The notes below the pieces were generated by a model that was not told the origin of the DNA, made no database searches, and saw only the letters and a list, made by a program, of their open reading frames with translations. This document shows positions 11,968-28,761 of a stretch of 40,000 nucleotides of DNA, in pieces; positions within the stretch are counted from its first letter, which is position 1; each line of letters starts with the position of its first letter. The translations under genes were made by a program, and so were the position numbers. Source of the DNA: Methanohalophilus halophilus (GTDB taxonomy: Archaea; Halobacteriota; Methanosarcinia; Methanosarcinales; Methanosarcinaceae); NCBI RefSeq assembly GCF_001889405.1, contig NZ_CP017921.1, positions 222,057-262,056 on the forward strand, in the 5' to 3' direction.

Positions 11968-12112
11968 TGTGAAGTTTATACTATCGTATCAACATTTAAA
12001 TTTTTGTATTCATTTCAAAAAATTTTGCCGAATTCTAGTGTACTTATAACTAAAAAGAATAGGGCAGTATATAGTTAATAATAAAAAAAGCAAACACTTA
12101 GAAATTGTTTAT

Positions 12113-12587: not shown

Positions 12588-12656
12588 CTTCATCTTTACT
12601 TAGTTAAAGTTAGTAATAAGAAAACGTTTTCTAATGTTAGAGATAATAAAAAAACT

Positions 12657-13532: not shown

Positions 13533-13590
13533 GTTTTGGAGAGGCGATGTTATGAAAAAAGACAATTTCGTCTATAAAGGGGAGTAATAG

Positions 13591-13929
13591 ATGAGTCATG
13601 AAGAACATTCTAAAATAACAAACGGTATCTATGTGTCTTTTGGAGAATTTGTAATTAATTCTGAATTAGTTGTAGAAAATATGAAACTATGTATTTATGA
13701 AATGTTTAGTAAAAGAGTGCTTAGTAATACCTTTGAAGGGCAGCAGTACTTAAATCTACTTTTAGCAGATTTTACATCCGCCCCTGTCAGGATGAAAATG
13801 AGAGTACTCATGGTTGAATCCTATATTAAGTTATCCAGAGACAAAATTCTCTGGTTGTTTTTTATTATTCTGTATGAGAAATCAAAACAAAAAAATATAC
13901 AAAATATTCTCAAATGCAACCTTTCATAA
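13591..13929 (+). CDS. Hypothetical small protein
   Basis: 112-aa ORF preceded by a purine-rich SD-like ggggag about 8 nt upstream of the ATG. No recognisable motifs. Confidence 0.35.
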   Translation: MSHEEHSKITNGIYVSFGEFVINSELVVENMKLCIYEMFSKRVLSNTFEGQQYLNLLLADFTSAPVRMKMRVLMVESYIKLSRDKILWLFFIILYEKSKQKNIQNILKCNLS

Positions 13930-13990
13930 TACTCAATAATCTTCAGGCAATATAATTGTGAATTTTCCTATTTCGTTTATTGCAATATAG

Positions 13991-14156
13991 ATATTCTGCC
14001 GTATTCCACTGGGCAATTCTATCTCTCCTGCTGAAGCTAAAGAAATCGGGATTAATAGTAGGAGTACATTGAATAAATTGAAAAAATAGGGCGAAAGAAG
14101 GGCATTTTAATTTGAATACGAAGGAGATGAGGAAGATATCCTTAAGTTTAATTTAA
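13991..14156 (+). pseudogene. Second casposon PolB extreme C-terminal fragment (HTH tail), frameshifted
   Basis: Translation gives IPLGNSISPAEAKEIGINSRSTLNKLKK*. After a 1-nt frameshift it continues NRAKEGHFNLNTKEMRKISLSLI*. This aligns with the intact PolB tail ILGLTPEDARRIGIKHRSALAYLKKKAKEGELNFKSRNMERIMDAFM. Confidence 0.7.
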
Positions 14157-14176
14157 TTATTCTCTAATCTATTTAC

Positions 14177-15025
14177 TCAAATATGCTTATAAAGACCCAT
14201 TTTAATCTTCCCACCTTCACCGAATTCAAGCTCTGAAAAACTAACTCCTTCAAGAAAGGTCATATCTGAATCTTCATAGCGGATTATATCTGAAATCGGG
14301 AGCTTTTTTAGTTCCTTCCACAAATGAACTTCAGCAGTAAAACCTTTTAACTGATACATTTCAGTTTCAGAAATCTCCATTTTATAGATTTGGTCTTTAT
14401 CAGCAAATGCAACTTTCTTTTGAATTCGAATTCCATCTTCTGGAATATCTTTGAATATTTCACTTTGTTTTACAATTACTTCTTGATAGAACAGTTCGTT
14501 CAAAGATAACTTTTCATTATTGGACATGAATTTTTCTTCATCACTTTCAAATTTAATATTATTACCATTATAATCAACTAATTCAAAAGTAAGTATTTTT
14601 ATAATTTCATATTGCTTATGTATTACTGGTAGACAATCACCTAAAAACCAAGAATGGATATCTTCTTTGCCGATTTGACTTAACACTCGTGTTTCAATTC
14701 CATAATGTTTTGCCGTTGTTTTTGCTGGTTCTGTAAAATCGTTAGATGAAACAGCTATTACTTTTTGAACGTTGAGATTTTGACACTTTGTTGCTAATTG
14801 CTCAATCCACATTGAATCCTGTTTAGTATTTCGATCTCTGCATTCTATGATTATTGTTAAAGGTATGGAGCCAATGTTTGCTTTAATTGAGATATCAACT
14901 TCTCTTTGCTGCCCAGTAATTTTGTCGATTAGAAAATCTGGAGAGGTAATTTCATATTCGTCTTTTGTTAATATTTTATGTAGCAGAGAAACCGTTTCTT
15001 CTAATTCTTTCCCTTTTCGTGCCAT
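14177..15025 (-). CDS. Restriction-endonuclease-fold (Mrr-cat-like) protein with unknown C-terminal domain
   Basis: 282-aa ORF. The N-terminus reads GKELEETVSLLHKIL ... QREVDISIKA ... TIIIECRDRNTKQ ... VIAVSSNDFTEPAKTTAKHYGIE, which fits the D...(D/E)xK nuclease core of Mrr-type enzymes. The C-terminal ~140 aa are unassigned. Confidence 0.55.
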   Translation of the reverse strand: MARKGKELEETVSLLHKILTKDEYEITSPDFLIDKITGQQREVDISIKANIGSIPLTIIIECRDRNTKQDSMWIEQLATKCQNLNVQKVIAVSSNDFTEPAKTTAKHYGIETRVLSQIGKEDIHSWFLGDCLPVIHKQYEIIKILTFELVDYNGNNIKFESDEEKFMSNNEKLSLNELFYQEVIVKQSEIFKDIPEDGIRIQKKVAFADKDQIYKMEISETEMYQLKGFTAEVHLWKELKKLPISDIIRYEDSDMTFLEGVSFSELEFGEGGKIKMGLYKHI

Positions 15026-15180
15026 TAAAAATTAAATTAATTGTCATGGTTAAAAAAGTATCTGATAATGATTTCTTTTTAATGATAAATGTGGTTATTT
15101 GAGTTTTTTATTTTTGGGTAAAGGTGTACATTTTTTCTTAGGAAATTAAAAAAATGGTTGTGCGTACAGAGTGCAAAACG

Positions 15181-15211
15181 CCGTACACTTTTTTCGCGTT
15201 GTATATATCCC
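15181..15211. repeat. Degenerate casposon terminal inverted repeat (right end of decayed distal element)
   Basis: ccgtacacttttttcgcgttgtatatatccc aligns without gaps to the intact right TIR gcgtacaaaaaattggagataactatatccc (19/31 identical). The cgtaca block and the terminal tatatccc sit at the same spacing. It directly abuts a TSD copy. Confidence 0.6.
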
Positions 15212-15225
15212 AGAAAAATAGTGCG
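15212..15225. repeat. Target-site duplication copy 1 (agaaaaatagtgcg)
   Basis: Exact 14-bp match to 19588-19601 and 28530-28543. It lies between a TIR-like right end and a TIR left end. Confidence 0.85.
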
Positions 15226-15387
15226 GGGATATAGTTATCTTAGATTTTTTGTACGGTATCTGTATTCTTTGTTCTTACTTAAAATAGAATGATTTATTTT
15301 AATAGTGGTTTTATATATTTGACAATATATTAATTCAAAATATGTTTTGGTTTAAGAGAAATTATTTTGTACAAGTATATTTAATGA

Positions 15388-15750
15388 TTGGGTATGAAGA
15401 AAGATGAACTTTTTATTAGAGAGTTTATTGTTGGATTAGGCTTTGTAAGTGGTTTATGGATTGCTGTTGGAATAAATCCAGAATCCCTAATAATTGAACA
15501 ACTAGTAAAAATTGGGAATACATTAACACCAAAACATAATTTTGGGTTTCTATTAATACTACCAAGCATAACTACTTTAATATCAATTATAAGTGCGTGG
15601 TTTTATGGTGGAGTTTTGGGTATGATTGCTATATTACTTGCTTTTATTAGTGGCATACTAATAATTCATTTTACCATGATAGCATCTGTTTTTTTGATGC
15701 TTTCTTTATTATTGGCTTCATTATCTGTAGATAATAATTATACTTATTGA
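15388..15750 (+). CDS. Small integral membrane protein (about 3 TM helices)
   Basis: 120-aa ORF with hydrophobic stretches: VGLGFVSGLWIAVGI, FGFLLILPSITTLISIISAWFYGGVLGMIAILLAFISGILIIHFTMIASVFLMLSLLLASL. Confidence 0.55.
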   Translation: MGMKKDELFIREFIVGLGFVSGLWIAVGINPESLIIEQLVKIGNTLTPKHNFGFLLILPSITTLISIISAWFYGGVLGMIAILLAFISGILIIHFTMIASVFLMLSLLLASLSVDNNYTY

Positions 15751-15764
15751 ATTGATTCATGGCC

Positions 15765-16070
15765 TTAATAAACATAATTAATAAGATAGTTATTGAGATT
15801 AGATATGGTTTTGTATTGTAATTCTATTAAGTCAGGTAATTTTTTAACAATTGGTAGTTCTTGGCTATAAATACTTGTGGGATATATGACATTTCTAAGC
15901 CTTGATTTGCTATTACTTTTTGTTCTTATCGGATAACGTGATAATATTGAATGAGTTAGTGGGATTTTTGCTAAAACATAAAGTGGTCCCAATACACTTA
16001 TGAATTTAAGGGCCTGCAATATTATTTTTTTTATATCAATCGAAAGTTGCAGTAATTGTGAGTCATTCAA
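15765..16070 (-). CDS. Hypothetical protein downstream of the HEPN gene
   Basis: 101-aa ORF located 6 nt downstream of the HEPN gene stop on the same strand. It has no recognisable motifs and is not an MNT nucleotidyltransferase (no GS...D.D motif). Confidence 0.4.
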   Translation of the reverse strand: MNDSQLLQLSIDIKKIILQALKFISVLGPLYVLAKIPLTHSILSRYPIRTKSNSKSRLRNVIYPTSIYSQELPIVKKLPDLIELQYKTISNLNNYLINYVY

Positions 16071-16076
16071 TTCAGA

Positions 16077-16664
16077 TTAAATATTAACAGATCCCAATTG
16101 TTCTTTATCTATATATTCACATTTCTCAAAATTACTAACTAATTGATTTATATTGTCTTTCCATTGTTTTAGATCTATCGAAGATTGATCTAAGGATTCA
16201 ATACTTTTTTTAATAGAAATTTCTAATTCAGAGACACTCTGAAAAATATCATTTATCTCGCGGGTTGATAAGAAATAAGGATTACGCTTAGATTTTTGCA
16301 TCTTGCCAATTTCCCGCAAGCCATTTTCACAGTGTACTATATTTTCTTCAGGTGATATTTCAATCAAAGAAAATATTTCATTAATTTCTGGAATATGATT
16401 AAGTAATTTAGCAGATCTTTGATATTTTTCTTTTTGGTCAATAAGCATTCTTTTATATATTTCCATAGGATCGTGTCTGATTTCTAGCATGGATTCTTCA
16501 TCGAATTTTCCAGAAGATAAAGCAAGTGCTTTGTTTGCCTTTTCCACACTTTGGGCAAAGAAAAAGATTGATTGTGGATAACATTTATTTTCATATAATA
16601 CAACTGAAGATTTTAAATCAGATTTTGCGAGTTTTACAAATTCTTTTACATATTTCATACTCAT
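16077..16664 (-). CDS. HEPN domain protein
   Basis: 195-aa all-helical ORF. The N-terminal signature AKSDLKSSVVLYENKCYPQSIFFFAQSVEKANKALAL is the classic HEPN helix 1-2 pattern (A..DL..A........y.....a.Q..EKa.KA). Confidence 0.65.
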   Translation of the reverse strand: MSMKYVKEFVKLAKSDLKSSVVLYENKCYPQSIFFFAQSVEKANKALALSSGKFDEESMLEIRHDPMEIYKRMLIDQKEKYQRSAKLLNHIPEINEIFSLIEISPEENIVHCENGLREIGKMQKSKRNPYFLSTREINDIFQSVSELEISIKKSIESLDQSSIDLKQWKDNINQLVSNFEKCEYIDKEQLGSVNI

Positions 16665-16705
16665 TCTCTCGTATATAATTATGCCATATTTATACCTTCA
16701 CTCAA

Positions 16706-16786
16706 AAAACACAACAAATTTATAATTCATCATATAAATCTTACTGCATAATAATTGTGTGATAAATTATAAATTTGTTGTGTTTT
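16706..16786. promoter_or_regulatory. Perfect 22-bp inverted repeat in the divergent intergenic region (operator or RNA hairpin candidate)
   Basis: aaaacacaacaaatttataatt (16706-16727) and its exact reverse complement aattataaatttgttgtgtttt (16765-16786), separated by 37 bp. It lies between the divergently oriented HEPN gene and the 754-aa gene. Confidence 0.6.
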
Positions 16787-16958
16787 ATTAAGTGTGGGGA
16801 ACAGATTTCTATAGAAATTACTACCTCTGGATAAACAACACAGATAGATATTATAATGATAGATTTAAATGAAAAATGCTTAATAAAGACCTACAAAATA
16901 TATAATATGAAGAAGAATGAAATTTTAATTATGGAATATCAGATACAATTTACTTGGA

Positions 16959-19223
16959 TTGAATAGCATGGGCACATATAAAAAAGAGACGCATAGCAAA
17001 GACTTATATGAGCTATATAAGCATGCAGAGAAAAACACAAAATCCGATTTCATTTCTATTTTTCGATGGTTGCGTAATCAGAATCAAATACTTGGCATAA
17101 ACGATTTACTCAAACTTCAACAGTATAATTCTCCTAACTATGGACATTGGGAAGTACCACTTTCAGTTATCCAATTATACAATATATTGCTTAATTCGAG
17201 AAAGTCTAAAAATATTCTTGATCCAGTAGGGAAATTAGGTTTGTTAGGGGGCATAATCTCAGAAAATGAAAATGTTCAAAATGTCGACATTGTAAGCAGT
17301 TTGCATGAATCTGAAGAAATAATACAATCAGTAAATATGCCAAAAGTTTCGCTTACTATTGGAAATATTATTGATCTCAAAGATAATTTAAAAGATAACT
17401 ACGATGCAATAATAGGCATACCACCAATAAATAACAAGGGGGATGTCAATAATAATTTAGTGGAAACTGCAAAAATGTTGTCCAAGGAAGGAATAATTGC
17501 TTTTGTAGTACCACCTCGCATTGCTTGGGATAAAAGCAAAAAATCAATAAAAGTGTCTCTAGAAAACAACGGATTATACCTGTCAGCATTATTGCAATTC
17601 CGTCCGGGAACATTTACTACAACAAATATACCTTTTTATCTTGCAATTTTTGAAAAAGTCAATCATGATACTTTGTTCGTAGGGGAAGTTCCTGAAAAAT
17701 ATGATGAATATGATGAATTGATAAAATGCTTTTCAAAAAGAAAAGAGGGAGAAACTATAAATCAAGGAAGATTGGTAGACCCCAATAATTTTAATGGGAT
17801 CAAATCTCTCAAAGCAAAAGAAAGAGCAAAAAAACTTGCTTCAGAAAGAGGACTTAAACCCATTCCTTTTGATAAGGTAGTTCACACAATAAATACTCCT
17901 AAAAAGAGAGGAAAAGATTTTGAAAGATTTGATGAACACCCAGATGCGGTTTATTTGCCTCAAATGGCAACAACAGAAGCAAAAACTCATCAAAACGATC
18001 TATCTCCGAAATTGAAATCATATTTGCAACTGATAGTCAATCATGATGTTGTTTTACCTGAATATTTAGCTGAATGGCTTAATACAACATTGGGTATTGC
18101 CTTTCGGGAATCAGCAATGCAAGGAATAACTATACCCAGAATAAATAAGAGCAATCTTCTATTAAGTAACCTTTACTTGCCTTCTGTTATAGATCAGCGT
18201 AAGGCATTAGATGCTCTTCTTTCAATTCAAGAAATGAAGTCTGATCTAGATGAGCTTGGGTCCAAAATATGGTATCAACCTTTAAATGTGTCAGAGGTCA
18301 TAACATCTTTAGAAAAAATTAATAGAGAGGAAGTATTTGGCGATTGGATAGAATCTCTTCCATACCCCCTCGCTTCAATTCTTAGATCATATGATACAGT
18401 AGACCAAACAGACAAAGACAAATATGAACGGCTCTTGCTTTTTTATGAAGGATTTGCTGAATTTTGCGCAACGGTGCATATTAGTGCATTTAAGAAACAG
18501 CCAGCTATTTGGGAGCCATTGAAAAATAAAATAAAACAAGTAATGGCTGAGAATAATTTTTCATTTGAAAAACCAACTTTTGGTTTGTGGGCCTCTATAA
18601 CAAGTATATTGGCGAAAGAATTACGTTCAATGATTAATGGAAAACAAGATGATAAAGATGCTACAAATGCACTTTATGAAACAGCTGATTTAGAACCATT
18701 AGAAATATTGTCATCCAAATCTTTAGTTAATTTAATAAACGAAACTAATAAAAAACGCAATGATTGGAGTGGTCACACAGGGGCTGTTTCCCAAAAAGAA
18801 GCTCGTGAAAGACATGACCACCTGAAAAACCAACTATCAAATTTGCATAAAATAATAGGTGATCTCTTCCAACAATATAAGCTTGTGGAGGCCGAGCCAT
18901 CAGGAATTGATGCTTTGACAGAGTCAAAGTTTAAGTGTAAAGTTAAATTAGTAATGGGTTCAAATCCTCTTCTTGAACGTCAAACATTGCAATTGAGTAT
19001 GACGTTAATTACAGGGTCATTATATATGTATAACATTGGAAATGATAGGGTTCTTGAACTGGTCCCATTTATTCAGGTCACTGAATCTCCACAATCTGCT
19101 AGTTACTTCTATAATAGAGTGGAAAAAGAAGGGTTACGCCTTGTTTCTTATCAAGTTATTAATGAATCAGAAATATTTAGAAAAAATCAGTACCTAGAGG
19201 ATTTGATAAAAAGTTTTACTTAA
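16959..19223 (+). CDS. Fusion protein: degenerate N6-MTase-like domain + HsdS-like TRD + C-terminal helical domain with HEPN-like Rx5H motif
   Basis: 754-aa ORF (TTG at 16959, first ATG at 16968). It has a Rossmann-like ILDPVGKLGLLGG and an atypical motif IV, AIIGIPPIN (I instead of N/D/S before PP). An HsdS-like segment reads GITIPRINKSNLLLSNLYLPSVIDQRKALDALLSIQEM. The C-terminal helical region contains KKRNDWSGHTGAVSQKEARERH. Confidence 0.55.
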   Translation: MNSMGTYKKETHSKDLYELYKHAEKNTKSDFISIFRWLRNQNQILGINDLLKLQQYNSPNYGHWEVPLSVIQLYNILLNSRKSKNILDPVGKLGLLGGIISENENVQNVDIVSSLHESEEIIQSVNMPKVSLTIGNIIDLKDNLKDNYDAIIGIPPINNKGDVNNNLVETAKMLSKEGIIAFVVPPRIAWDKSKKSIKVSLENNGLYLSALLQFRPGTFTTTNIPFYLAIFEKVNHDTLFVGEVPEKYDEYDELIKCFSKRKEGETINQGRLVDPNNFNGIKSLKAKERAKKLASERGLKPIPFDKVVHTINTPKKRGKDFERFDEHPDAVYLPQMATTEAKTHQNDLSPKLKSYLQLIVNHDVVLPEYLAEWLNTTLGIAFRESAMQGITIPRINKSNLLLSNLYLPSVIDQRKALDALLSIQEMKSDLDELGSKIWYQPLNVSEVITSLEKINREEVFGDWIESLPYPLASILRSYDTVDQTDKDKYERLLLFYEGFAEFCATVHISAFKKQPAIWEPLKNKIKQVMAENNFSFEKPTFGLWASITSILAKELRSMINGKQDDKDATNALYETADLEPLEILSSKSLVNLINETNKKRNDWSGHTGAVSQKEARERHDHLKNQLSNLHKIIGDLFQQYKLVEAEPSGIDALTESKFKCKVKLVMGSNPLLERQTLQLSMTLITGSLYMYNIGNDRVLELVPFIQVTESPQSASYFYNRVEKEGLRLVSYQVINESEIFRKNQYLEDLIKSFT

Positions 19224-19587
19224 TGAAAGAAGGGAGTTATGAAGATTCTAACTATTACCAAATATAATATAAAAAGTACTCTTAGACAGTTTCCAAAAAA
19301 ACAATCATTAATGATGAAAATATATTCTTTTCATCAGCATTTCGAGTATCCATGCACAAAGTGATAAATGTATTTTGAGTAGTAGGTCCTTTCAAAAATA
19401 GATTAATGCAGTTTGGTCAAATGTTGCTTTTTATTAGTTAGTAAGTATAAAATACGAATTAATATAATTTTTTGGTGGTTGTATTTTTCAATTCTACCTA
19501 TAACCCCGATTTTATGTGTGAGTGATAAAATTCGAACCAAAACTTTCTAAAATTCTGAGTATCTTATTTTCAGGATACCTATATCCC

Positions 19588-19601
19588 AGAAAAATAGTGC
19601 G
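19588..19601. repeat. Target-site duplication copy 2 (agaaaaatagtgcg)
   Basis: Exact 14-bp repeat. It separates the right end of the non-autonomous element from the left TIR of the intact casposon. Confidence 0.85.
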
Positions 19602-19632
19602 GGGATATAGTTATCTCTAATTTTTTGTACGC
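19602..19632. repeat. Casposon left terminal inverted repeat
   Basis: See the casposon feature (19602-28529). This TIR matches the reverse complement of 28499-28529 at 30/31. Confidence 0.9.
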
Positions 19633-19845
19633 TAAGTATTTACAGACTTATTTAAATTAACTACTGGGTTAATCTTTTAAATTGAAACCCAGATAAATGT
19701 ACAGAACGTTCAATTCACATCTTCTTTTAAAAGAGTGTCACTTTTTCGCAAAAGGAACATTTTTATAATAAACGGTTTATGATCCATTATCATTATACTT
19801 TTTTATAAAATGATGTAATATATCATGTTAAATATAGTTTGATTA

Positions 19846-20787
19846 TTGGGTGGTATTATGTATTGCCATAATTGTGGTTCAGAAATAGATGATAATGATG
19901 CTGCATTTTGCTCAAAATGTGGAACTAAAATCAAAAAAATAGAAAAAGAAATATTGTCCTCTACACTTGATGTAAAAAATGAAGAAAGTAGGAAGGATGA
20001 ATCATATATTGAGTTAGATACAGCCAACCAAAATAACACATCTATTAAAAAAGAAAATCCAGATTCGTGGGTTTTTATAAAAATATGTGCATATATAATT
20101 TGTGCTGTGGTTATTTCTTCCTTATTTATAGGCCTGTATAATATTGGTAGTGATTTTTATGGGGGTGAGGGAGCGTTTGTACAAGGTGAAGGTGGAGAAG
20201 GATTCGTTGCTTCAAATTCTGATATTACCCATAGCTTAACACAAGAACAAAAAAACACTCAAATTTGTGAAGAAATTGTACAAAACTACTATGAAACCCA
20301 TACATACGTATCGGATGATGTTTTTGATTGCGATAACATGGCAATGGATGTTTGGAATTTAGTAGAAAGTAAAGGAATAAATGCTGAAATTGCCGTGGGT
20401 AATGTAGATATGAAGGATGCAAATTTAGAAGATATCAATCATGCTTGGGTAATAGCAGAAGTTTCACCACAAAATTGGGTAGCTATAGAATGTACCAGTG
20501 GTTATCTTACATATGATGATGTGTATTATTCGGGTTGGTTCTTTGACAACCCTAAAAACTATCAAAGTTTTTTAAATGTATATACCACTTGGGAATATAA
20601 ATATCAAGAATATGAAAATTATAGATTATATTATAATGAATTGGTTGAACAGTTTAATGAGGCTGATGCCTATGAGCAAGCCTCACTAAGAAGTGGTCTT
20701 GAAATTGCAAGAGAAAATCTTCATCAAAAAGAAAGAGATTTTTTACAGGCTAAAACCGAATTAAATGCATTATTAGAATATGGGTAA
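19846..20787 (+). CDS. Zinc-ribbon / TM / transglutaminase-like cysteine-protease-fold protein (casposon cargo)
   Basis: 313-aa ORF whose likely true start is the ATG at 19858 (MYCHNCGSEIDDNDAAFCSKCG zinc ribbon). It has one TM helix (WVFIKICAYIICAVVISSLFIGLY). A Cys...His...Glu/Asp arrangement (FDCDNMAMDVWNLVESKGINAEIAVG ... INHAWVIAEV ... WVAIECTSG) resembles the transglutaminase-like core. Confidence 0.6.
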   Translation: MGGIMYCHNCGSEIDDNDAAFCSKCGTKIKKIEKEILSSTLDVKNEESRKDESYIELDTANQNNTSIKKENPDSWVFIKICAYIICAVVISSLFIGLYNIGSDFYGGEGAFVQGEGGEGFVASNSDITHSLTQEQKNTQICEEIVQNYYETHTYVSDDVFDCDNMAMDVWNLVESKGINAEIAVGNVDMKDANLEDINHAWVIAEVSPQNWVAIECTSGYLTYDDVYYSGWFFDNPKNYQSFLNVYTTWEYKYQEYENYRLYYNELVEQFNEADAYEQASLRSGLEIARENLHQKERDFLQAKTELNALLEYG

Positions 20788-21017
20788 ATATCATTATGAA
20801 ATTGAATATATTTCAAAAACATCTTTCCAGAAAACTTCAAGGACTGCAACAATTAAAATTACAGTTTCATCGCGAAAAGCTTTATTGTTTAAATTATTGA
20901 TTTTTTCAAAATTTATTTCAAATGCTTTGTTAATATCTTGTATTCATGGATTTTATCATTTTGAGACATAAACAAAATAATGTATGTCAACACTTATTGT
21001 TTTATTGATTCAGAGCT

Positions 21018-23684
21018 TTACATAAAAGCATCCATAATTCTCTCCATATTCCTACTCTTAAAATTCAACTCTCCTTCCTTTGCTTTTTTCTTCAAGTAAG
21101 CCAAAGCACTCCTATGTTTAATTCCAATCCTTCTGGCATCTTCAGGAGTTAAACCAAGAATAAACTTCTCCACTGCTTTTCCATCAATGAACTTTTGAGG
21201 TCTTACAACATCCAACTCCTGCTCATCAATATCATTGGCCTCTTTACCAATATACACAAACCCATCAATATCAATATGTTTTCTTGCAAGAGTGCCAGTA
21301 TCACCCCCAAACTTATGCTCTGGATGATCTATATACTCAAGAATCGTATTGCTTAATGGCTTGAAATAGTAAGATCCTTGCCTGACTTCTCCAGTCTGAT
21401 AATCAATAAAAGACTCATAAACTATCTTCTGATAATCCTTAGTAAAAGGTGCTAAAGGCTTGACAACCTTGTCATTTTCTTCTGTTGTCTGAAACCCAAC
21501 CAGAAAGAAATTGAATGGTTTGATCTGTTCTCTCCATTCCTTGACAGCATTAAGATCCTTGAATCTATCCAATACATTGGAAGTACTGACAGTAAGCTGA
21601 GAGATTGCATACAGGCTAGAATATTTCTCAACAATATCTTCCTCAGAAATAATCCCATAATGTAACTTGAGTATATCTTGCCAAATTTCAGCCTGCCAAT
21701 CTTCAACATCCTTTGGAAACGGATTTGTTAAATGACCAAGCCCATGAAGTTTGTAAGATCTCTCTCCTTCCATGAACTCAATTTTATCCTTGTTTAAGTT
21801 GTAGAGTGCATATCTCTTGGAAGAGATCCCATAAAACCACATATCCTCTTTCTCAGGCTTCAATAAAGGAATATCCAGAGCATAAGGATTCAATGGCTGG
21901 AAATAATCAACTATCTCCTGTGCATTTTCAGGAGGAACAAAGATTGAATCTGTATCCATATAAGCATGAGTTCCACCAAGTTCTTTGAGTCTGGCTTCAG
22001 CCATAGCCAGAAAAAGCCTTGAACCTGCTGTAATCATGACTGCCACAAAAGGATGATAGAAATTACCTGGCTTTTCAAACCTATTCTCTGAAGTACTGAA
22101 ATCATCAAGCCCATAAACCTGAATATCACTTTTCTTATCTTCTGGATTAAGTTCAATAAAGATCCCATAACTCATTGCGTTAACAAGAATCTTGATGGCC
22201 TGTGCTCTGCTCTTTAGATGTTGATATTCAGGATCTTTTTTATCAAGACTTTTCATATCCTGTTTTATCTTTTGCCTTTCCTCAACCATTATCTTGGTTA
22301 GGCTTTCTTTGGATGGATCAATATTTATTCCAAGTATCTCCTGAATGTTCAAGTCATCCTGAATCCCAACAGGAACAAACTTGACAGCCTCTATGATCTC
22401 AGGGGTCTTTCCAGTTAATAGGACAGAACCGATAACATCAGGCAAAGCATACCATAAACCATCTTTAGAACTTACATGATTTAATCCAACATTATAACTC
22501 TCATTCTTGCCTTTGTAATCCATCCTTACAGGCAATATATCCTCATCTGGTTTCAATTTAACAAGGATATTGAAATGAGGCCAGTTATCTGGATTTTGTA
22601 AATAATCAAGATCTATATTGGAAAGAATCTTTTTTGCTTCCTCTGTTGCATCTTCAGTCTCAATCCTGTCAGCAATCAAAAATGGCCAGAGATCCAACAT
22701 TAAAGTAATAGTAGGATACATACTGGTAAAATCAAGAACTGTAACTTGGGTTGGTGTTTTCCTGATCTTGCATTCACACCTGCCACCAAAATAAGCAGTC
22801 ATTATATTTCCTAACATCTCAGGAGAGAAATCAGGATTCTTTTCTAAAAATGGGTTTATTCCAATTTGTTTCATGGCATGTTTACCAAGAGAAGCAGCAC
22901 TAAACACTCTGGTTATGGGTATATCAATACCATAAAGATCCAGTTCTTTCACAAGTTCCCTGTAAACTTCAAAAGTAGTTTTGACATCAGTTACAAGATA
23001 GTCAATATACTTCTCAGTAACTCGGCCATGTTTTATATTCTTCTTTTTCTTAATGTTGGTATTGAGCCTCTCTCCTACCTTATCAAGTGAAATATGATTC
23101 TTTGATTGAAGGAGTACTTCAGCCAGTTTTTGAGCATCTAAAAAGTATCCCCCAAAATACTCTTTACCCTTGTTTTGCTTGGTTGTTGTGAATTTGAAGG
23201 AATAAGCAGTACCAAGTTTTTTGATAACAATTGGGGGTTTAACTCTATCATCTGACAGAGTAAGAGTAAACCCACCTTTGTTTTTCCCTCTGGAATTTCC
23301 AGATCTCTTGGCTATCCTGCTTATATCAAAGGCCAGATTGAATCCAACACATAAAGTTTGGAAATCATATACCTCTGTATAGAACACATTATCTACAAAA
23401 TCAGATAGAGTATAGATAGATATAGTATGTCTAGATGCATAGATATTCAAGGCTCTTGTTTCCCTTACATCCAGCATTGAAGGATCATAAAATAACCCTT
23501 CATGCTGAATATAGCCATCCTGATATATCTGGAAATATCCAATTTTCATGTTTTGGTACTGGTCTGTTGTAGTCTCAGTATCAAAGACCAATACTCTATC
23601 ATGTCTCAAAGGTGTGGTTGGAGTTTCACCCTTCCATGCTTTCTTTTCTTTGTGGGTGTATCCCCTCACAGCAACCTTAGTCAT
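21018..23684 (-). CDS. polB: Protein-primed family B DNA polymerase (casposon PolB)
   Basis: 888-aa ORF with Exo I (VLVFDTETT), Exo II (GFNLAFDISRI), Pol motif B (KILVNAMSYGIF), Pol motif C (HAYMDTDSIFV) and a C-terminal HTH-like tail. Confidence 0.93.
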   Translation of the reverse strand: MTKVAVRGYTHKEKKAWKGETPTTPLRHDRVLVFDTETTTDQYQNMKIGYFQIYQDGYIQHEGLFYDPSMLDVRETRALNIYASRHTISIYTLSDFVDNVFYTEVYDFQTLCVGFNLAFDISRIAKRSGNSRGKNKGGFTLTLSDDRVKPPIVIKKLGTAYSFKFTTTKQNKGKEYFGGYFLDAQKLAEVLLQSKNHISLDKVGERLNTNIKKKKNIKHGRVTEKYIDYLVTDVKTTFEVYRELVKELDLYGIDIPITRVFSAASLGKHAMKQIGINPFLEKNPDFSPEMLGNIMTAYFGGRCECKIRKTPTQVTVLDFTSMYPTITLMLDLWPFLIADRIETEDATEEAKKILSNIDLDYLQNPDNWPHFNILVKLKPDEDILPVRMDYKGKNESYNVGLNHVSSKDGLWYALPDVIGSVLLTGKTPEIIEAVKFVPVGIQDDLNIQEILGINIDPSKESLTKIMVEERQKIKQDMKSLDKKDPEYQHLKSRAQAIKILVNAMSYGIFIELNPEDKKSDIQVYGLDDFSTSENRFEKPGNFYHPFVAVMITAGSRLFLAMAEARLKELGGTHAYMDTDSIFVPPENAQEIVDYFQPLNPYALDIPLLKPEKEDMWFYGISSKRYALYNLNKDKIEFMEGERSYKLHGLGHLTNPFPKDVEDWQAEIWQDILKLHYGIISEEDIVEKYSSLYAISQLTVSTSNVLDRFKDLNAVKEWREQIKPFNFFLVGFQTTEENDKVVKPLAPFTKDYQKIVYESFIDYQTGEVRQGSYYFKPLSNTILEYIDHPEHKFGGDTGTLARKHIDIDGFVYIGKEANDIDEQELDVVRPQKFIDGKAVEKFILGLTPEDARRIGIKHRSALAYLKKKAKEGELNFKSRNMERIMDAFM

Positions 23685-24018
23685 GTTTCATCAACTCATG
23701 TCCATAACTGAGCAACTGATCCCCTATACCCCTGAGTAATGCACCAACTGAGATAAACCAAAATCCCCTCTGTTCAATAGGTTTGGCCTTTTTTGACCTT
23801 TTTTTAGGACTTACCTTGTTCTGTTCTGCTGTAGTTTTGAAATGGCAGCTCTTGCATAGAGGAATTGTTTCATCAGAATTGCATCTACCATAAACATGAT
23901 GCATCTCTATGACAGAAAGATCATCCTCTCCACATTCAACACAACAAAGAGATGTTTGCTTGTTTCTCTTCTGCTTCCTTGTAGCCTTTAGATATGTTTC
24001 TTTATCCATCTGTATCAC
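23677..24018 (-). CDS. HNH endonuclease
   Basis: 113-aa ORF with CCVECGEDDLSVIEMHHV ... TIPLCKSCHFKT (HNH/zinc-finger signature). It overlaps the PolB start by 8 nt, which suggests translational coupling. Confidence 0.85.
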   Translation of the reverse strand: MIQMDKETYLKATRKQKRNKQTSLCCVECGEDDLSVIEMHHVYGRCNSDETIPLCKSCHFKTTAEQNKVSPKKRSKKAKPIEQRGFWFISVGALLRGIGDQLLSYGHELMKHD

Positions 24019-24023
24019 CTCCT

Positions 24024-24665
24024 TTAGCTCTTGTAAATCTCCAGAAATTCAGGTTCTTCAATAGTTTCTCCAATTTCATACAGTCTCTCAAGGCTGGTCT
24101 CAAGTCTGTACTCGTTACCATCAGCATCCTTTATCTTCATATCCTTGAACTTCTCAAGACCTGAAGGATCTCCTGTTTTCAAGGCCTTCTGTACAGCAGC
24201 AAAATATTTTCCAATCCTTGATCTATCTCTGGAATTGGTGACAACAATACTGGTTACTCCTTCATCTTCAGAGTAGATCAGCATTTCAGACTGAATAGAA
24301 TCAGTTTTTGTGACCTGCCATCTGCCACCCTCTTTTTCCAGATGTGTTCCAAGATGCTTGAGAGCAAACTGTTTGTTTACTCCAAGTTTACTGGTGGCCT
24401 CACTCAGAGTTTTACCATGTCTCATTTTCCTCAAAATTTCAAGGGATAGGTTTCTATCCCTTTTCTGACTTGAAGACAGGTTTTGCCATACTGTATTGCT
24501 GAGGTCATAATCACTTATCTTCAGATTCCTTAATTGCTTCAGACTTTTATCAGGGGAATACTGATGTTTCCTGATTATCCCCTTTGCATACCTGGAAGTC
24601 CTTGATTGAGCATTGAGCCACTCACCATAGGTTCTGTGCTTTCTGGAGAAACGTGGTCTTCCCAT
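24024..24665 (-). CDS. HTH DNA-binding protein (casposon core-associated)
   Basis: 213-aa ORF with an HTH-like segment KTLSEATSKLGVNKQFALKHLG. It is in the same operon as HNH and PolB. Confidence 0.6.
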   Translation of the reverse strand: MGRPRFSRKHRTYGEWLNAQSRTSRYAKGIIRKHQYSPDKSLKQLRNLKISDYDLSNTVWQNLSSSQKRDRNLSLEILRKMRHGKTLSEATSKLGVNKQFALKHLGTHLEKEGGRWQVTKTDSIQSEMLIYSEDEGVTSIVVTNSRDRSRIGKYFAAVQKALKTGDPSGLEKFKDMKIKDADGNEYRLETSLERLYEIGETIEEPEFLEIYKS

Positions 24666-24805
24666 TATTTCTCAGCCTCCCAGAGTTTCAGTAATGCTAT
24701 CCTGATAACTTCAGCCTGAGAGCATCCAAACTTATCTGACAACTGTACAAGTGTCTCCTTGAGATAAGGAGAAAGTGTTGTTATTATTCTTTCACTTTCA
24801 TTCAT
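24665..24805 (-). CDS. Small ribbon-helix-helix (CopG-like) protein, absent from the supplied ORF track
   Basis: Manual translation of the minus strand gives MNESERIITTLSPYLKETLVQLSDKFGCSQAEVIRIALLKLWEAEK* (46 aa). This is a beta-strand followed by two helices with the typical S..EVIR.AL pattern. Its TAA overlaps the ATG of the next gene by 1 nt (ATAATG). Confidence 0.5.
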   Translation of the reverse strand: MNESERIITTLSPYLKETLVQLSDKFGCSQAEVIRIALLKLWEAEK

Positions 24806-24939
24806 TGGTTTTCACCAATAGACTGTATGTACAGCCATACTGATATTAACAATGATATTGATTTTAATACTAAAATGAGCATTAATGATATAAACCATAA
24901 CAAATATGATATTATATTAGATAGTGAGAGGTAGAAATA

Positions 24940-25848
24940 TTGATACAAAATGAGGCTGATTTTGAGGAGGAAGTTGTTCAGTATTTAAACAAGAATGGCA
25001 AGATGCGAAGAGAGCAGTTGATTAAAGTACTTATTGAGGCGCATACACAAACAAACGAAAAAGGAGACAAATTTGTAGATGGTGGATATAGTAAACCCAC
25101 AATTAATAGAAAACTTGGAGATATGCTTGGATCTGGTAAAATCATAAGATTGAATTACCACCAGCTTAAAAACTATGGCTTTTCTGAAGATGATGGGAGG
25201 GCAACATATCTGTTTACTGAGGAAGGGCTACGATTGAAGACACATATTGATGAGGTACTCAAGCTTCTTGCTTCAGATGATGAAATTGATAAACAGATTG
25301 CTTTGAAAGAATTAAACCGATACAGTGAAATTTACTCTTTTGATGAAACTCAGCTAGATTTAATCGTGCAAAATCTAGCCTCCAAGAACGCAGAATTGAC
25401 AAACAAGTTTCTTACTACTCTCAAAAATTACATCATCAACAGAGGAAAAGAGCCGACGGATAAAAAAGCCTTGTTGAACGCTCTAAAGATCGTGCTGGAG
25501 AAGCATGGAGAACCAGCCGGAAAAAACAAGGTCACTAGAGAAGTGGCCATCCTTTTACTTAGCCACTATAAAGACGAATATGTACTTGACCAGCTCATCA
25601 AAGATGCAAATGCCTTGGATAATCCTCTAGAAGTAGAAGAGGATTATGCCCATGACCCTTCGATGATTGCTGATATTATCATAAAAAATCCTTCAAGACT
25701 ATTTGAGGCTGAAAGGCAATTGACAAAAGAAGGAAAATATGATGCTTCTCAGTTCATTTCAAATATAAGGGGTCGGTGCATGAGGGCATTTCGAATGAAT
25801 GATGCTGAAAAAGCAGAGATTCAGAAAAAACTAGAAGAGGAGTTATAA
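24940..25848 (+). CDS. Hypothetical protein, N-terminal winged-helix-like domain + helical repeats
   Basis: 302-aa ORF with a TTG start preceded by gagagg. The N-terminus reads VVQYLNKNGKMRREQLIKVLIEA ... YSKPTINRKLGDMLGSGKIIRL, which is wHTH-like. Its stop overlaps the Cas1 start (TAATG). Confidence 0.5.
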   Translation: MIQNEADFEEEVVQYLNKNGKMRREQLIKVLIEAHTQTNEKGDKFVDGGYSKPTINRKLGDMLGSGKIIRLNYHQLKNYGFSEDDGRATYLFTEEGLRLKTHIDEVLKLLASDDEIDKQIALKELNRYSEIYSFDETQLDLIVQNLASKNAELTNKFLTTLKNYIINRGKEPTDKKALLNALKIVLEKHGEPAGKNKVTREVAILLLSHYKDEYVLDQLIKDANALDNPLEVEEDYAHDPSMIADIIIKNPSRLFEAERQLTKEGKYDASQFISNIRGRCMRAFRMNDAEKAEIQKKLEEEL

Positions 25849-27050
25849 TGAAACTCCTTTTATTGAATGGTCATGGAATCGATATGCGGGTGAGCGGGGC
25901 AAAACTGCATATCAAGGATGGTAGGTTCACTACTGCTGAAGATCCTCAGAAGTATGTATTCCATCCCAAAAGGGTAGATGTGGATAATGTTGTTATCTAT
26001 GGGCAGAGTGGCAATCTTACAATTGAGGCTATCAGATGGTTGATCAAACATAATGTTCAAATTACAGTTCTGGATTGGAATGGAAAACTCCTTACTACAA
26101 TGTTACCTTCTGAAAGTACCAATGTCAAAACCAAGTTTGCTCAGTATCATGCTTTTGAAGATGAACAAACCAGAGTTAAACTGGCAAGGAAGTTTATTGA
26201 GGCCAAGATCTCCAAATCTGAGAGTGTTCTTGAGTATTTAAAACAGAGATATCCTGAGATTGAGTTTGATTTTTCAGAAGATCTTGATAAACTTAAAAAG
26301 ACAAAATCTGTCAGGGAAATTCTTGGTATTGAGGGTGGAGTTGCATGGAAGTACTGGAAAGAGTATGCTAAAGCAATTCCTGAAAAATATGAGTTTAATT
26401 CAAGGGTTGATGAATACAGGAGGCCTGTGGCAGCAGGAGATAAGGTTAATGTAATGCTGAATTATGGTTACTCACTCCTTGAGGCTGAATGTTTAAGAGC
26501 CATTAATACTGCTGGTCTTGATGGACATGTAGGCTTCTTGCATGAAATGAATCCAAGTAAATACAGTTTAGCCTATGACCTTCAAGAGCCTTTCAGATTC
26601 CTTGTTGAACTTACAGTTCTGAATTTGATTGAAAGAGATGTGATGGATAAACAGGATTTTATCAGAACTGAGAACTATGGTTTAAGGTTTAAACCGACTG
26701 GTGCTAGAAAATTAACCTCTGAGTTTAACGTTATGTTAAACAGGAGTTTAACGTATAAAGGTAAAAACTCATCATGGAGTTATATCTTGTTGTTGAAAAC
26801 AAGAGAACTGGCTTTTTATCTTACGGGTAGAAGGAAGACTTTGGAGTTTGTCGATCCAGTCTATAAGGTTGAAAGGGATGATTCTGAGGAGTTGAGGCAG
26901 AAGATCCTCTATATGCCTTACTCTGAGTGGAAGAAGATGGGTTTTTCTAAGGGTACTCTTCATTACATGAAGCAGAATGCTAAGTCTGGTAAGCCTTTTA
27001 GTTTAAATGCCCATGTGAGGGAGAGGTTGGAGATGTGGGAAGTACATTAA
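25848..27050 (+). CDS. cas1: Cas1-family integrase (casposase) with C-terminal HTH
   Basis: 400-aa ORF with Cas1 signatures: GIEGGVAWKYW (catalytic Glu region), NVMLNYGYSLLE, GLDGHVGFLHEM (His) and SLAYDLQEPFR (Glu/Asp). A C-terminal HTH-like tail (WKKMGFSKGTLHYMKQNAKSG) is typical of casposases. No cas2, other cas genes or CRISPR array are present in the window. Confidence 0.92.
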   Translation: MKLLLLNGHGIDMRVSGAKLHIKDGRFTTAEDPQKYVFHPKRVDVDNVVIYGQSGNLTIEAIRWLIKHNVQITVLDWNGKLLTTMLPSESTNVKTKFAQYHAFEDEQTRVKLARKFIEAKISKSESVLEYLKQRYPEIEFDFSEDLDKLKKTKSVREILGIEGGVAWKYWKEYAKAIPEKYEFNSRVDEYRRPVAAGDKVNVMLNYGYSLLEAECLRAINTAGLDGHVGFLHEMNPSKYSLAYDLQEPFRFLVELTVLNLIERDVMDKQDFIRTENYGLRFKPTGARKLTSEFNVMLNRSLTYKGKNSSWSYILLLKTRELAFYLTGRRKTLEFVDPVYKVERDDSEELRQKILYMPYSEWKKMGFSKGTLHYMKQNAKSGKPFSLNAHVRERLEMWEVH

Positions 27051-27163
27051 TTAAGTATATTTTTTTACACAAAAAGGTGAATATAAGCAACTATATTTTT
27101 TATATAATTTTATATCTTATAGACTACAAAAATGATTTATAGAATTTTGTTTCATTTATACAT

Positions 27164-27838
27164 ATGCATAGTTTGGAAGTAGTCACTCTTTTTTTACAAG
27201 CAATTGTAACTCTGTATGCATTTTTCTTTGCAGTATATGCGCTTGGGATAAAAAAATATGCTAAAAATATTACTTATCATTCTTATTTTGACGCAATATC
27301 ATTAGCAGTTTTAAGTTCTATATTTATATATACTTTAATGCTGTTCATTTATTCACAAGATTTAAATTTATTATCTTTTTATATTCATATCAATATATTA
27401 GAAATTATATTGAGTTTTATAGAACGTTCAAATATTAATTATTTTAATGTTGCATATAGTATATTCATTTTTATAATCGGATTGATGTTTATATATGCAA
27501 AGATTTTACTGGATTTGAATAAGTCAGAAGAAAGATTTTCCCAAAAAATAAGTAATATTCAGCTAGAAAAGGGGAAGGTAAAACCATTATTTAAAATAAC
27601 TTATTACATCTTTAAATATTACTTGTCTAACATGGGGATCTATGGAAATTTAGTATTTATTTTAATGTTAATTTTTCTTGTTTTACAATTTCCAGAGATA
27701 TCCTTTTTCGGATTAATTACATTTATTATTGGAGTTTATTTGTTTTTAGGGGCTTTTATTTTTATAACAACATTAATCATATTTTGTGTTTCATTTTGTA
27801 AAGTAAGACTACTCCAAAATAGACTGAAGCATCTCTGA
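27164..27838 (+). CDS. Polytopic membrane protein (casposon cargo)
   Basis: 224-aa very AT-rich ORF with at least 5 hydrophobic helices. No family assignment. Confidence 0.5.
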   Translation: MHSLEVVTLFLQAIVTLYAFFFAVYALGIKKYAKNITYHSYFDAISLAVLSSIFIYTLMLFIYSQDLNLLSFYIHINILEIILSFIERSNINYFNVAYSIFIFIIGLMFIYAKILLDLNKSEERFSQKISNIQLEKGKVKPLFKITYYIFKYYLSNMGIYGNLVFILMLIFLVLQFPEISFFGLITFIIGVYLFLGAFIFITTLIIFCVSFCKVRLLQNRLKHL

Positions 27839-28048
27839 GGCCACATAAACATAAAAAGAACTTACATAGTATAATTATTTTTAATTATGCAGATGCTTTG
27901 AAAACGTATTATTCTTGTTCAATTACTTAAATAATATTTGAGATAATATTACAAAATCTAGTGCTTTTAAAGATAACTTTAAGTAAAATATTATTTCTAA
28001 AAATATTACAAAAGATTCAAATAAATTCTTATAAAAATATATTAGATA

Positions 28049-28435
28049 TTATTCTGCTCGAACTTTATCAATTTTTAGGTTGATTTTTCCATTTTTACTT
28101 TTTAATTCATGCCATTCGCTGTTTGTTAAAGTTACAGAATGAGTTCTTTTCTTTTGCACATTCGCCCCATCCCTAACTGTACCAAAATATATTGTATTCG
28201 TTTCTAAGATTCTATTATCGAAAAGAAGTGAATAATCAACCTGGACATTATCAGCATCCATTGTGCCAATATTTGTAGTATCGAAATAACATTCCACAAT
28301 TATATTGTCATTTGATAATGTGTTATATTCATAAGTGTTTTGTCCATCAACAATAACTTCATAATTACCTGTACAACCTGATATAAATACTATGCAAATA
28401 ATGGATAGAATGAGTGTCGTTTTATTACAAAACAT
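28049..28435 (-). CDS. Putative secreted/lipobox protein (casposon cargo)
   Basis: 128-aa ORF with an N-terminal signal-like helix ending in FISGCTG (lipobox-like Cys). Confidence 0.5.
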   Translation of the reverse strand: MFCNKTTLILSIICIVFISGCTGNYEVIVDGQNTYEYNTLSNDNIIVECYFDTTNIGTMDADNVQVDYSLLFDNRILETNTIYFGTVRDGANVQKKRTHSVTLTNSEWHELKSKNGKINLKIDKVRAE

Positions 28436-28498
28436 ATATTTTTAATATGTACTCCTAATATATATATTTTTTATATGCCCTAGATTTTACATAAAATA

Positions 28499-28529
28499 GC
28501 GTACAAAAAATTGGAGATAACTATATCCC
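28499..28529. repeat. Casposon right terminal inverted repeat
   Basis: gcgtacaaaaaattggagataactatatccc is the reverse complement of 19602-19632 with one mismatch. Confidence 0.9.
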
Positions 28530-28543
28530 AGAAAAATAGTGCG
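28530..28543. repeat. Target-site duplication copy 3 (agaaaaatagtgcg), overlapping the tRNA-Leu 3' end
   Basis: Exact 14-bp repeat. Positions 28540-28543 are the last 4 nt (CGCA on the gene strand) of tRNA-Leu. Confidence 0.88.
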
Positions 28544-28624
28544 AGGGGTGGGATTCGAACCCACGGACTCCTACGAGAATGGGTCCTAAGCCCATCGCCT
28601 TTGGCCTGGCTGGGCAACCCTCGC
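28540..28624 (-). tRNA. tRNA-Leu (anticodon UAG)
   Basis: Manual cloverleaf of the 85-nt minus-strand sequence GCGAGGG-TT-GCC..GGC-G-ATGGG-CTTAGGA-CCCAT-(14-nt variable arm TCTCGTAGGAGTCC)-GTGGG-TTCGAAT-CCCAC-CCCTCGC-A. The long variable arm and TAG anticodon indicate Leu. CCA is not encoded. Confidence 0.9.
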
Positions 28625-28719
28625 CCGATTGATGTTGGTTAAATACATACCTTACATATTAAATTGACGGATTATTGAAAGCAAATTTGTGGAAAACAAT
28701 ATGCAGCCCTATGAATATA

Positions 28720-28761
28720 GTCCTAAGCCCTGCGCCTTTGGCCTGGCTGGGCAACCCCCGC
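28720..28761 (-). pseudogene. Orphan 5' half of a second tRNA-Leu(UAG)-like gene
   Basis: The minus-strand sequence GCGGGGGTTGCCCAGCCAGGCCAAAGGCGCAGGGCTTAGGAC matches tRNA-Leu positions 1 to ~41 with 3 substitutions. Similarity stops just after the anticodon loop. No matching 3' half (no gcggggg on the plus strand) occurs in the 95 bp before the intact tRNA. Confidence 0.7.

Follow-up and report, generated by a model that had tools for sequence, protein, structure and literature searches.

A probably autonomous family 2 casposon beside a tRNA-Leu gene in the chromosome of Methanohalophilus halophilus, next to remnants of other casposons

Results

The locus and the ends of the element

The stretch analysed here is a 40,000-nt window of the chromosome of Methanohalophilus halophilus (assembly GCF_001889405.1, contig NZ_CP017921.1, positions 222,057 to 262,056 of the forward strand); unless a locus is named, coordinates are those of the window. 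At 19602-28529 it carries an element of 8,928 bp, here called element A, which lies between exact 14-bp repeats at the 3' end of a tRNA-Leu(UAG) gene, and which is very probably an autonomous family 2 casposon. Its limits are set by the following features (TIR, terminal inverted repeat).

19588-19601: target-site duplication, tRNA-distal copy of element A, AGAAAAATAGTGCG, identified as an exact copy and by junction alignment
19602-19634, plus strand: left TIR of element A, GGGATATAGTTATCTCTAATTTTTTGTACGCTA
28497-28529, minus strand: right TIR of element A, identical at 37/37 positions to the right TIR of the casposon in a metagenomic locus (L088)
28530-28543: target-site duplication, tRNA-proximal copy, the last 4 nt being the 3' end of the tRNA
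28540-28624, minus strand: tRNA-Leu (anticodon UAG), the integration target (Rfam tRNA, 49.9 bits)

The two arms of 33 nt contain a single mismatch (32/33, 97% complementary) and form the longest inverted repeat spanning the region. A first-pass annotation of this DNA had placed 31-bp TIRs at 19602-19632 and 28499-28529 with 30/31 identity; these were recovered and can be extended to 33 nt with 1 mismatch. When up to 3 mismatches are allowed, the 31-nt version has only two sites, 30/31 being shared between the arms, and no TIR-like match was found in 100 shuffled sequences (expected 0.00). The 14-mer AGAAAAATAGTGCG (CGCACTATTTTTCT when read in the sense of the tRNA) has exact copies at 19588-19601 and 28530-28543, the chance expectation at up to 2 mismatches being about 0.42 matches. 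The length of 8,928 bp and the exact 14-bp repeats on both flanks, also proposed in that annotation, were likewise confirmed, and the pattern of inverted repeats and target duplication holds on computed alignments. ARAGORN places the tRNA-Leu (anticodon TAG) at 28539-28624 on the minus strand, compared with 28540-28624 by Rfam; from the latter position it follows that the tRNA-proximal repeat includes the four terminal nucleotides of the tRNA (CGCA). The target gene, tRNA-Leu(UAG), is intact and undisrupted, with only these 4 nt inside the duplication.

Casposon targets in Methanosarcina mazei consist of a conserved CGCA followed by an AT-rich stretch, the first 4 bp being contributed by tRNA-Leu (PMC4779613, PMC6977970). 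The duplicated target CGCACTATTTTTCT fits this rule, and it closely resembles tLEU2, CGCAcTtAttTTtT, a site at which MetMaz-C1 integrated in vivo (PMC10359463). A scan of all loci that we fetched revealed more than 30 Methanosarcinaceae junctions of the same design, (tRNA T-arm)-CGCA-N10/GGGATATAG, and these loci also hold six further complete elements, 8.6-15.2 kb long and flanked by exact 14-bp repeats (including those in L001, L002, L006, L007 and L089).

Gene content

Element A contains eight sizeable open reading frames (ORFs), five core and three cargo, none of which is interrupted (aa, amino acids; HTH, helix-turn-helix).

19846-20787, plus strand: cargo ORF, 313 aa, with an N-terminal zinc ribbon and a predicted membrane segment (Pfam Zn_Ribbon_1, E 2.8e-07)
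21018-23684, minus strand: family B DNA polymerase (PolB), 888 aa, uninterrupted (Pfam DNA_pol_B_2, E 6.8e-15; DNA_pol_B, E 7.4e-06)
23677-24018, minus strand: HNH-type endonuclease, 113 aa, CxxC...HH...N...CxxCH, the motif being invariant in 8 homologues
24024-24665, minus strand: conserved casposon core protein, 213 aa, with homologues in synteny at 15 loci
24940-25848, plus strand: conserved casposon core protein, 302 aa, its syntenic homologues at 11 loci being 31-36% identical
25848-27050, plus strand: casposase, a Cas1 homologue with a C-terminal HTH, 400 aa (Pfam Cas_Cas1, E 4.6e-68)
27164-27838, plus strand: cargo ORF, 224 aa, a multi-pass membrane protein for which Pfam and the fetched loci gave no homologues
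28049-28435, minus strand: accessory ORF, 128 aa, with an N-terminus like that of a lipoprotein, found at this position in two other casposons also

Residues 1-399 of the Cas1 homologue align without gaps to residues 18-416 of the chain in PDB 6OPM, the M. mazei casposase, at 67% identity (E 3.5e-192), by far the best match among solved structures. This end-to-end alignment and the Pfam match uphold the earlier description of an uninterrupted Cas1-family integrase with a C-terminal HTH; within the HTH tail, 45 of the last 69 residues are identical to 6OPM. The catalytic and DNA-contact residues that can be aligned with 6OPM are conserved, and R191 and R192, reported to contact target bases (PMC6977970), are kept. 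CRISPR Cas1 structures score E 1e-41 or weaker, at least 150 orders of magnitude below the casposase, and the subtype-specific Cas1 models of NCBIfam all remain below their cutoffs, so that only the generic cas1 model passes. The 40-kb window holds no CRISPR array or tandem repeats, and there is no cas2 among the ORFs and annotated neighbours of element A. Judged by these comparisons the protein is a casposase and not a CRISPR Cas1, and the placement inside CRISPR-associated clades that would have spoken against a casposon was not observed. The public records (APH38235.1, WP_072560461.1) nevertheless label it as "CRISPR-associated endonuclease Cas1".

An identical Cas1 is present in all three M. 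halophilus assemblies of the protein collection, and the assembly record GCA_003722055.1 (contig RJJG01000001.1) was matched by exact-sequence comparison. Outside M. halophilus the nearest full-length Cas1 is a JGI metagenomic protein (P0129) in the same 90% cluster, with 93% amino acid identity, and the nearest from a named organism is from Methanococcoides, at 74% identity.

The PolB translation shows Exo I-III, motifs A, B and C (the last as YMDTDS) and KxY. Family 2 casposon PolBs are reported to carry at their C-terminus an HTH resembling that of Cas1 (PMC4046053), and a BLASTP comparison of the two C-termini in element A gave 9/30 identical residues and 57% positives (E 0.001 for a single comparison), a weak but specific similarity. 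The best Pfam model, DNA_pol_B_2, covers the exonuclease part only, the best PDB match is a weak one to an archaeal RNA-primed PolB, and in element A no gene for a terminal protein was recognised. Family 2 casposon PolBs have been related to the RNA-primed archaeal PolB3 (PMC4046053), and the PolB of the A. boonei casposon falls into a cluster of its own, "PolB_CDTDS", that is related to the main as well as to the protein-primed groups (PMC7544198); the mixed matches obtained here fit such a separate placement. An uninterrupted polymerase with all Exo and Pol motifs, as first annotated, is thus present, whereas its designation as protein-primed finds no support, family 2 PolBs not being classed in this way (PMC4046053, PMC7544198).

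For the putative HNH nuclease, eight residues are invariant in 8 homologues (C26, C29, H40, H41, N47, C55, C58 and H59), and its syntenic counterparts in the aligned casposon loci show 51-61% identity, that of Methanosarcina sp. 2.H.T.1A.6 being at 61%. Its profile matches are weak (Pfam HNH, E 0.34; PDB ZRANB3 HNH, E 0.25); the invariant motif and the synteny still bear out the nuclease assignment. The 213-aa protein shows 54-61% identity in 7 aligned homologues, and its counterpart is annotated as an HTH protein in the casposon literature; the 302-aa ORF stands where described family 2 casposons have their HTH-HEAT protein. Neither yielded a match to an HTH or HEAT fold in Pfam (E up to 5) or in PDB profiles, where hits were at chance level, and the HTH or ribbon-helix-helix folds first assigned to them are unconfirmed. 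Their status as core genes rests on synteny and homology: the order PolB-HNH-213 aa-302 aa-Cas1 is the same in at least 11 fetched loci, among them that of Methanosarcina sp. 2.H.T.1A.6, whose casposons have been described (PMC4779613), and the five genes correspond to the published family 2 core (PMC4046053). As to the cargo, the 313-aa ORF varies between casposons and has only one distant homologue among the fetched loci, and the 128-aa ORF has one homologue after Cas1 in L002 (59%) and another in L088 (38%).

Apart from the folds of the two small proteins, all structural features for which we tested were found in element A, namely casposase, HTH tail, PolB, HNH, TIRs, 14-bp target-site duplication and insertion at a tRNA 3' end. 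Cas1, repeats and five-gene synteny together substantiate the earlier view of an intact Methanosarcina-type casposon at the 3' end of tRNA-Leu with a 14-bp duplication, and we found no relatives that carry the same content without repeat boundaries. We therefore regard it as very probable that element A is a family 2 (Methanosarcina-type) casposon that was inserted at tRNA-Leu by its own casposase.

Relatives and selection

The closest relatives belong to a metagenomic lineage (loci L088, L089 and L091, from JGI) whose core genes are about 90-92% identical to those of element A; the L088 PolB has 90% amino acid identity. The casposon in L088 sits at tRNA-Leu(UAA) with a different 14-mer, and the units in L089 and L091 measure 8,597 bp. 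Comparison with L088 gave ratios of nonsynonymous to synonymous substitution rates (dN/dS) of 0.14 for PolB, 0.33 for HNH, 0.25 for the 213-aa gene and 0.12 for Cas1, and from these values of 0.12-0.33 it follows that the lineage of element A has been under purifying selection. The A-type TIR was also found in eight further metagenome contigs beside six different CGCA-N10 targets.

In L088 the 302-aa "HTH-HEAT" gene is missing (L088 6925-7254, compared with window 24674-25847), yet Cas1, PolB and HNH are intact, the flanks exact and the TIRs good, so that the 302-aa protein may be dispensable or supplied in trans.

In M. euhalobius, a sister species, the tRNA-Leu gene is joined through a 16-nt CGCA... 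sequence to the old TIR piece that is also found left of element A, with nothing in between. Element A is thus absent at the corresponding junction. Recent activity of the element is plausible.

The tandem array to the left of element A

A third exact copy of the 14-mer, absent from the first-pass annotation, lies at 15212-15225. Element A is the tRNA-proximal and presumably newest unit of a tandem array of casposon remnants, and its left "flank" is itself casposon DNA. From the tRNA outward, and presumably from newest to oldest, this array consists of the intact element A, a composite remnant B and a remnant C, with the following features.

19544-19587: solo TIR of about 44 bp and of a third type, the type bounding a 15.9-kb casposon in Methanolobus sp. 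WCC5
19507-19543: degenerate tRNA 3'-end-like piece and old target, in remnant B
19477-19506: MetMah-C1-type TIR (GGGTTATAGGTAG...), in remnant B
15226-19587: composite remnant B, 4,362 bp, from which Cas1 and PolB are missing without trace
16959-19223, plus strand: 754-aa protein of remnant B, with weak methyltransferase (MTS, mad2) and type I specificity-domain similarity
16077-16664, minus strand: HEPN protein of remnant B
15212-15225: third 14-mer copy, exact, at the junction between remnants C and B
15181-15211: right TIR of remnant C, with the architecture GGGATATA-N16-TGTACG, the same as in the neighbouring TIR
9846-15211: remnant C, the oldest, with an uncertain left border, 9846 being a weak 18/30 candidate only
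14177-15025, minus strand: Mrr-like nuclease of remnant C
12657-13532: ORF of remnant C with weak similarity to the TIR protein domain (not the inverted repeat)
12119-12608, plus strand, in inverted orientation: PolB C-terminal pseudogene of remnant C (tblastn 12156-12536, 41% amino acid identity)
10366-11967, minus strand: Drt4-type defence reverse transcriptase of remnant C, full length (PADLOC Drt4, E 2e-194)

The three junctions align as ...TATATCCC/CGCACTATTTTTCT/GGGATATAG..., that is, TIR, repeat and TIR back to back with identical 14-mers. The left end of remnant B is an A-type TIR (15226-15259), which over 15226-15256 matches the TIR of element A at 27/31 positions, and the two ends of remnant B are only 19/31 alike. 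In remnant C the polymerase pseudogene is the only remainder of a casposon core gene, and at its left end neither a repeat copy nor a convincing TIR was found. Decay increases with distance from the tRNA, and at least four types of casposon end have accumulated at one tRNA. The GC content across 10-20 kb is about 0.27-0.34, compared with 0.41-0.47 in the host flank.

The right end of remnant B, with its TIR and pseudo-tRNA piece, is common to M. euhalobius. Similar pseudo-tRNA ends of about 20 nt precede casposon TIRs at several other loci. The HEPN and 754-aa genes are divergent, and a near-perfect palindrome of 38 nt between them (16706-16786) is a possible operator; a 43% identical HEPN homologue lies inside the casposon of about 15.9 kb in Methanolobus sp. 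WCC5 (L004 16718-17632). The reverse transcriptase of remnant C also matches PADLOC Drt6 (E 4e-173), and its NCBIfam Drt4 score of 267.6 bits is below the cutoff of 450; the gene occupies the place where most of a casposon PolB would be expected.

The same genome contains a second casposon graveyard.

L093 1-13092 (FNMU01000002.1; also RJJG01000010.1): units of 3.3 and 3.7 kb with mixed TIR types

This second array has the repeat CGCACCAAATTCTT (once inverted), two truncated Cas1 genes and a HepT/MNT toxin-antitoxin pair. A Cas1 fragment from it is 92% identical to the Cas1 of element A.

The tRNA-Leu allele

Upstream of the intact target gene lies a fragment of another.

28720-28761, minus strand: orphan 5' half of a second tRNA-Leu(UAG), stopping just past the anticodon loop

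The orphan half is 95 bp upstream of the complete tRNA-Leu (spacer 28625-28719) and identical at 42/42 positions to the 5' half of the tRNA-Leu of M. euhalobius; no matching 3' half exists in the window. The complete tRNA beside element A differs from the M. euhalobius gene at 10 positions, and since these include compensatory stem changes it represents a coherent, different allele. Recombination, or another element, may have brought in the tRNA jointly with the youngest part of the array.

Discussion

A proposed mechanism

As far as its sequence can tell, element A would function like the tRNA-Leu casposons of M. mazei. By analogy with that system, a tetramer of the casposase would bind the 3'-OH ends of the TIRs and join the two ends to the target 14 bp apart on opposite strands, after which gap repair would duplicate the 14 bp. 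PolB presumably copies the element, and the HNH protein and the two small conserved proteins presumably assist. The M. mazei casposase requires, besides the 14-bp target, about 30 bp of upstream tRNA-Leu sequence (PMC6977970), and in M. mazei a mini-casposon integrates in vivo into the resident duplication to give a tandem, while excision leaves a single target copy (PMC10359463). Only the 14-mer adjacent to the tRNA would keep the upstream recognition sequence and hence be a good target. Because the other copies lack that sequence, each newcomer should land between the tRNA and the preceding element, and such a rule would predict an intact element beside the tRNA with decay rising with distance, which is the pattern seen.

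Is element A still mobile?

Several observations weigh against our interpretation or limit its reach. An exact-pattern metagenome scan for the empty-site junction (tRNA end, 14-mer and old TIR) returned 0 matches; no empty-site or circle junction of element A was found. The comparison with M. euhalobius should be interpreted with some caution, since the different tRNA allele and the orphan half indicate a rearranged locus, so that strict orthology is not given. L088 does without the 302-aa core gene, which makes it uncertain what genes a complete set comprises. Finally, the HNH and HTH assignments draw on motif, synteny and literature, and the corresponding profile matches are not significant.

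With these points in mind, we lean only slightly towards an element that is still capable of moving. The leading alternative is that element A is a genuine casposon that is now immobile, recently fixed or silenced, and that the array is a graveyard without a living member; we consider this a possible but less probable state of affairs. It would agree with the lack of polymorphism or excision evidence from the metagenome scan, with the same Cas1 sequence in the three M. halophilus assemblies, and with the decayed state of all copies in the rest of the array and at the second genomic locus. Excision in M. mazei is moreover extremely rare, at 1e-5 to 1e-9 per genome (PMC10359463). Against an immobile copy stand the good order of all eight ORFs, the TIRs of 32/33 and exact repeats, the low dN/dS on the lineage, and the conservation of the catalytic and DNA-contact residues that align with 6OPM.

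Units without Cas1 and PolB

A further reading takes tRNA-Leu as a polarised recorder of casposon invasions in which gutted units form a defence island; those with ends still usable and nothing but cargo would be natural non-autonomous casposons, moved in trans by the casposase of the intact neighbour. We find this unlikely, although an artificial mini-casposon has been moved in trans in M. mazei (PMC10359463); no description of natural non-autonomous casposons was found in the literature searched. As speculative candidates we can name remnant B, with its HEPN and methyltransferase-like genes, and, as the best one, a small unit in L088.

L088 10805-13564 (JGI 3300035542, Ga0376504_000251): 2.76-kb unit bounded by TIRs of casposon type and exact 14-bp flanks CGCATCGTTTCTTT, its only ORF being one of 608 aa

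The L088 unit follows a complete casposon in tandem at tRNA-Leu(UAA) and is itself followed by a third unit with HsdR-like genes. Since the 14-mer is common to every unit of a tandem array, any piece of one should have flanks that match, and the non-autonomous reading therefore stays speculative. For the same reason, and because its ends are only 19/31 alike with two further end types inside, we rejected remnant B as evidence of a transposed unit.

The size of the mobile unit

It is very unlikely that the mobile unit is instead a 13.3-kb composite that extends from the TIR at 15226 as far as the one ending at 28529, with the defence-like genes of remnant B as cargo and 19588-19634 as an internal relic. 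The outer ends of such a composite are alike at 27/31 positions and have the same exact 14-mer flanks, family 2 casposons of 15-16 kb are known (15,223 bp in L006 and 16,366 bp for MetMah-C1), and the HEPN homologue in Methanolobus sp. WCC5 does lie within a casposon of that size class (about 15.9 kb). The internal junction, on the other hand, has the full TIR-14-mer-TIR signature of two separate insertions, and the right end of remnant B holds two further TIR types and a pseudo-tRNA end and is shared with M. euhalobius, which is without element A. The flank match carries no weight in an array whose units all share the 14-mer, and the 8,597-bp relatives in L089 and L091 already point to the smaller unit.

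A CRISPR adaptation Cas1, or a virus or plasmid whose tyrosine integrase uses the tRNA and whose repeats are att sites, would agree with the public annotation and with the use of tRNA-Leu by integrase-type elements in Methanosarcina (PMC4779613), but is for practical purposes refuted by the lack of a CRISPR array in the 40 kb, of cas2 among the ORFs and of an integrase among those of 9.1-28.5 kb, by the margin of at least 150 orders of magnitude between casposase and CRISPR Cas1 structures, and by boundaries made of TIRs and a 14-bp duplication rather than of a tRNA-fragment att pair.

Comparison with known systems

The family 2 casposon that we recognise in element A most resembles those at tRNA-Leu in M. 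mazei, such as MetMaz1FA1A3-C2. The two share a 14-bp CGCA duplication over the last 4 bp of tRNA-Leu, a TIR of about 31 bp beginning GGGATATAG, and a gene set of C-terminal-HTH casposase (67% identical), PolB, HNH and two small conserved proteins, and either orientation relative to the tRNA is permitted. Element A differs in its host genus, Methanohalophilus, in the inner half of the TIR (...AATTTTTTGTACGC instead of ...AAAAAAACGCAACGG), and in its cargo, which comprises a zinc-ribbon membrane protein, a membrane protein and a lipoprotein-like ORF.

Within the genus, MetMah-C1 of Methanohalophilus mahii DSM 5219 has been described as a casposon of 16,366 bp at tRNA-Leu (PMC4046053 supplement). 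It belongs to the same target class and family, and a relic of a MetMah-C1-type TIR is present at 19477-19506. However, element A has a different TIR and repeat, is about half the size and has no KAP ATPase, and it accordingly represents a separate lineage. That the window might simply be the MetMah-C1 locus of M. mahii was considered and rejected, as TIR, repeat, size and Cas1 sequence all differ.

Tandem casposons have been reported from Methanosarcina sp. 2.H.T.1A.3,.6,.8 and.15 (PMC4779613) and for the mini-casposon of M. mazei (PMC10359463). Like the array described here, they stand back to back with a shared target duplication beside tRNA-Leu, one copy being intact and the other or others inactivated. 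The present array differs from them by its at least four TIR types (three or more units), by a clear gradient of decay from the tRNA, and by older units that are without Cas1 and PolB and now hold defence-type genes. CRISPR adaptation by Cas1-Cas2 at the leader-proximal repeat offers a more distant parallel: the integrase is homologous, the integration is staggered and duplicates the target, an upstream "leader-like" sequence is required, and the array grows in a polarised manner at one end. In contrast, element A has no Cas2, CRISPR repeats or spacers, and the insert is a 9-kb element that encodes its own integrase.

Significance

With element A, a clean family 2 casposon that looks complete becomes available from a halophilic methanogen that can be cultivated, M. 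halophilus DSM 3094 / Z-7982. What is new is this further copy; the type of casposon and its tandem arrays at tRNA-Leu were known (PMC4779613), and no description of a casposon in M. halophilus was found in the literature searched. Together with its array it leaves the current understanding unchanged and is a good specimen rather than a new kind. Since previous work has been almost confined to M. mazei and A. boonei, it offers a ready second test case for recognition of the target (14-mer and tRNA end), excision and tandem formation, and the public label of its casposase as a CRISPR Cas1 is an annotation to note. An array with defence-type cargo (Drt4, HEPN and Mrr-like, with a type I restriction-modification system just beyond it) also illustrates leader-proximal, polarised growth by a Cas1 integrase, a behaviour thought to have been co-opted by CRISPR.

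Neighbouring features

Two further features of the window are as follows.

1307-9098: complete type I restriction-modification system directly beyond the array, with HsdR (918 aa), an ORF of 500 aa, HsdS with an ASCH domain, and HsdM
38589-39815, plus strand: ORF of 408 aa with a Cas12f1-like_TNB (TnpB-type) domain, from precomputed Pfam results on an identical Logan contig

HsdM is separated from the AT-rich array by some 460 bp of GC-rich sequence (9100-9560), in which no convincing ORF and no Rfam match were found. The ORF at 38589-39815 is probably a TnpB of the IS200/IS605 family.

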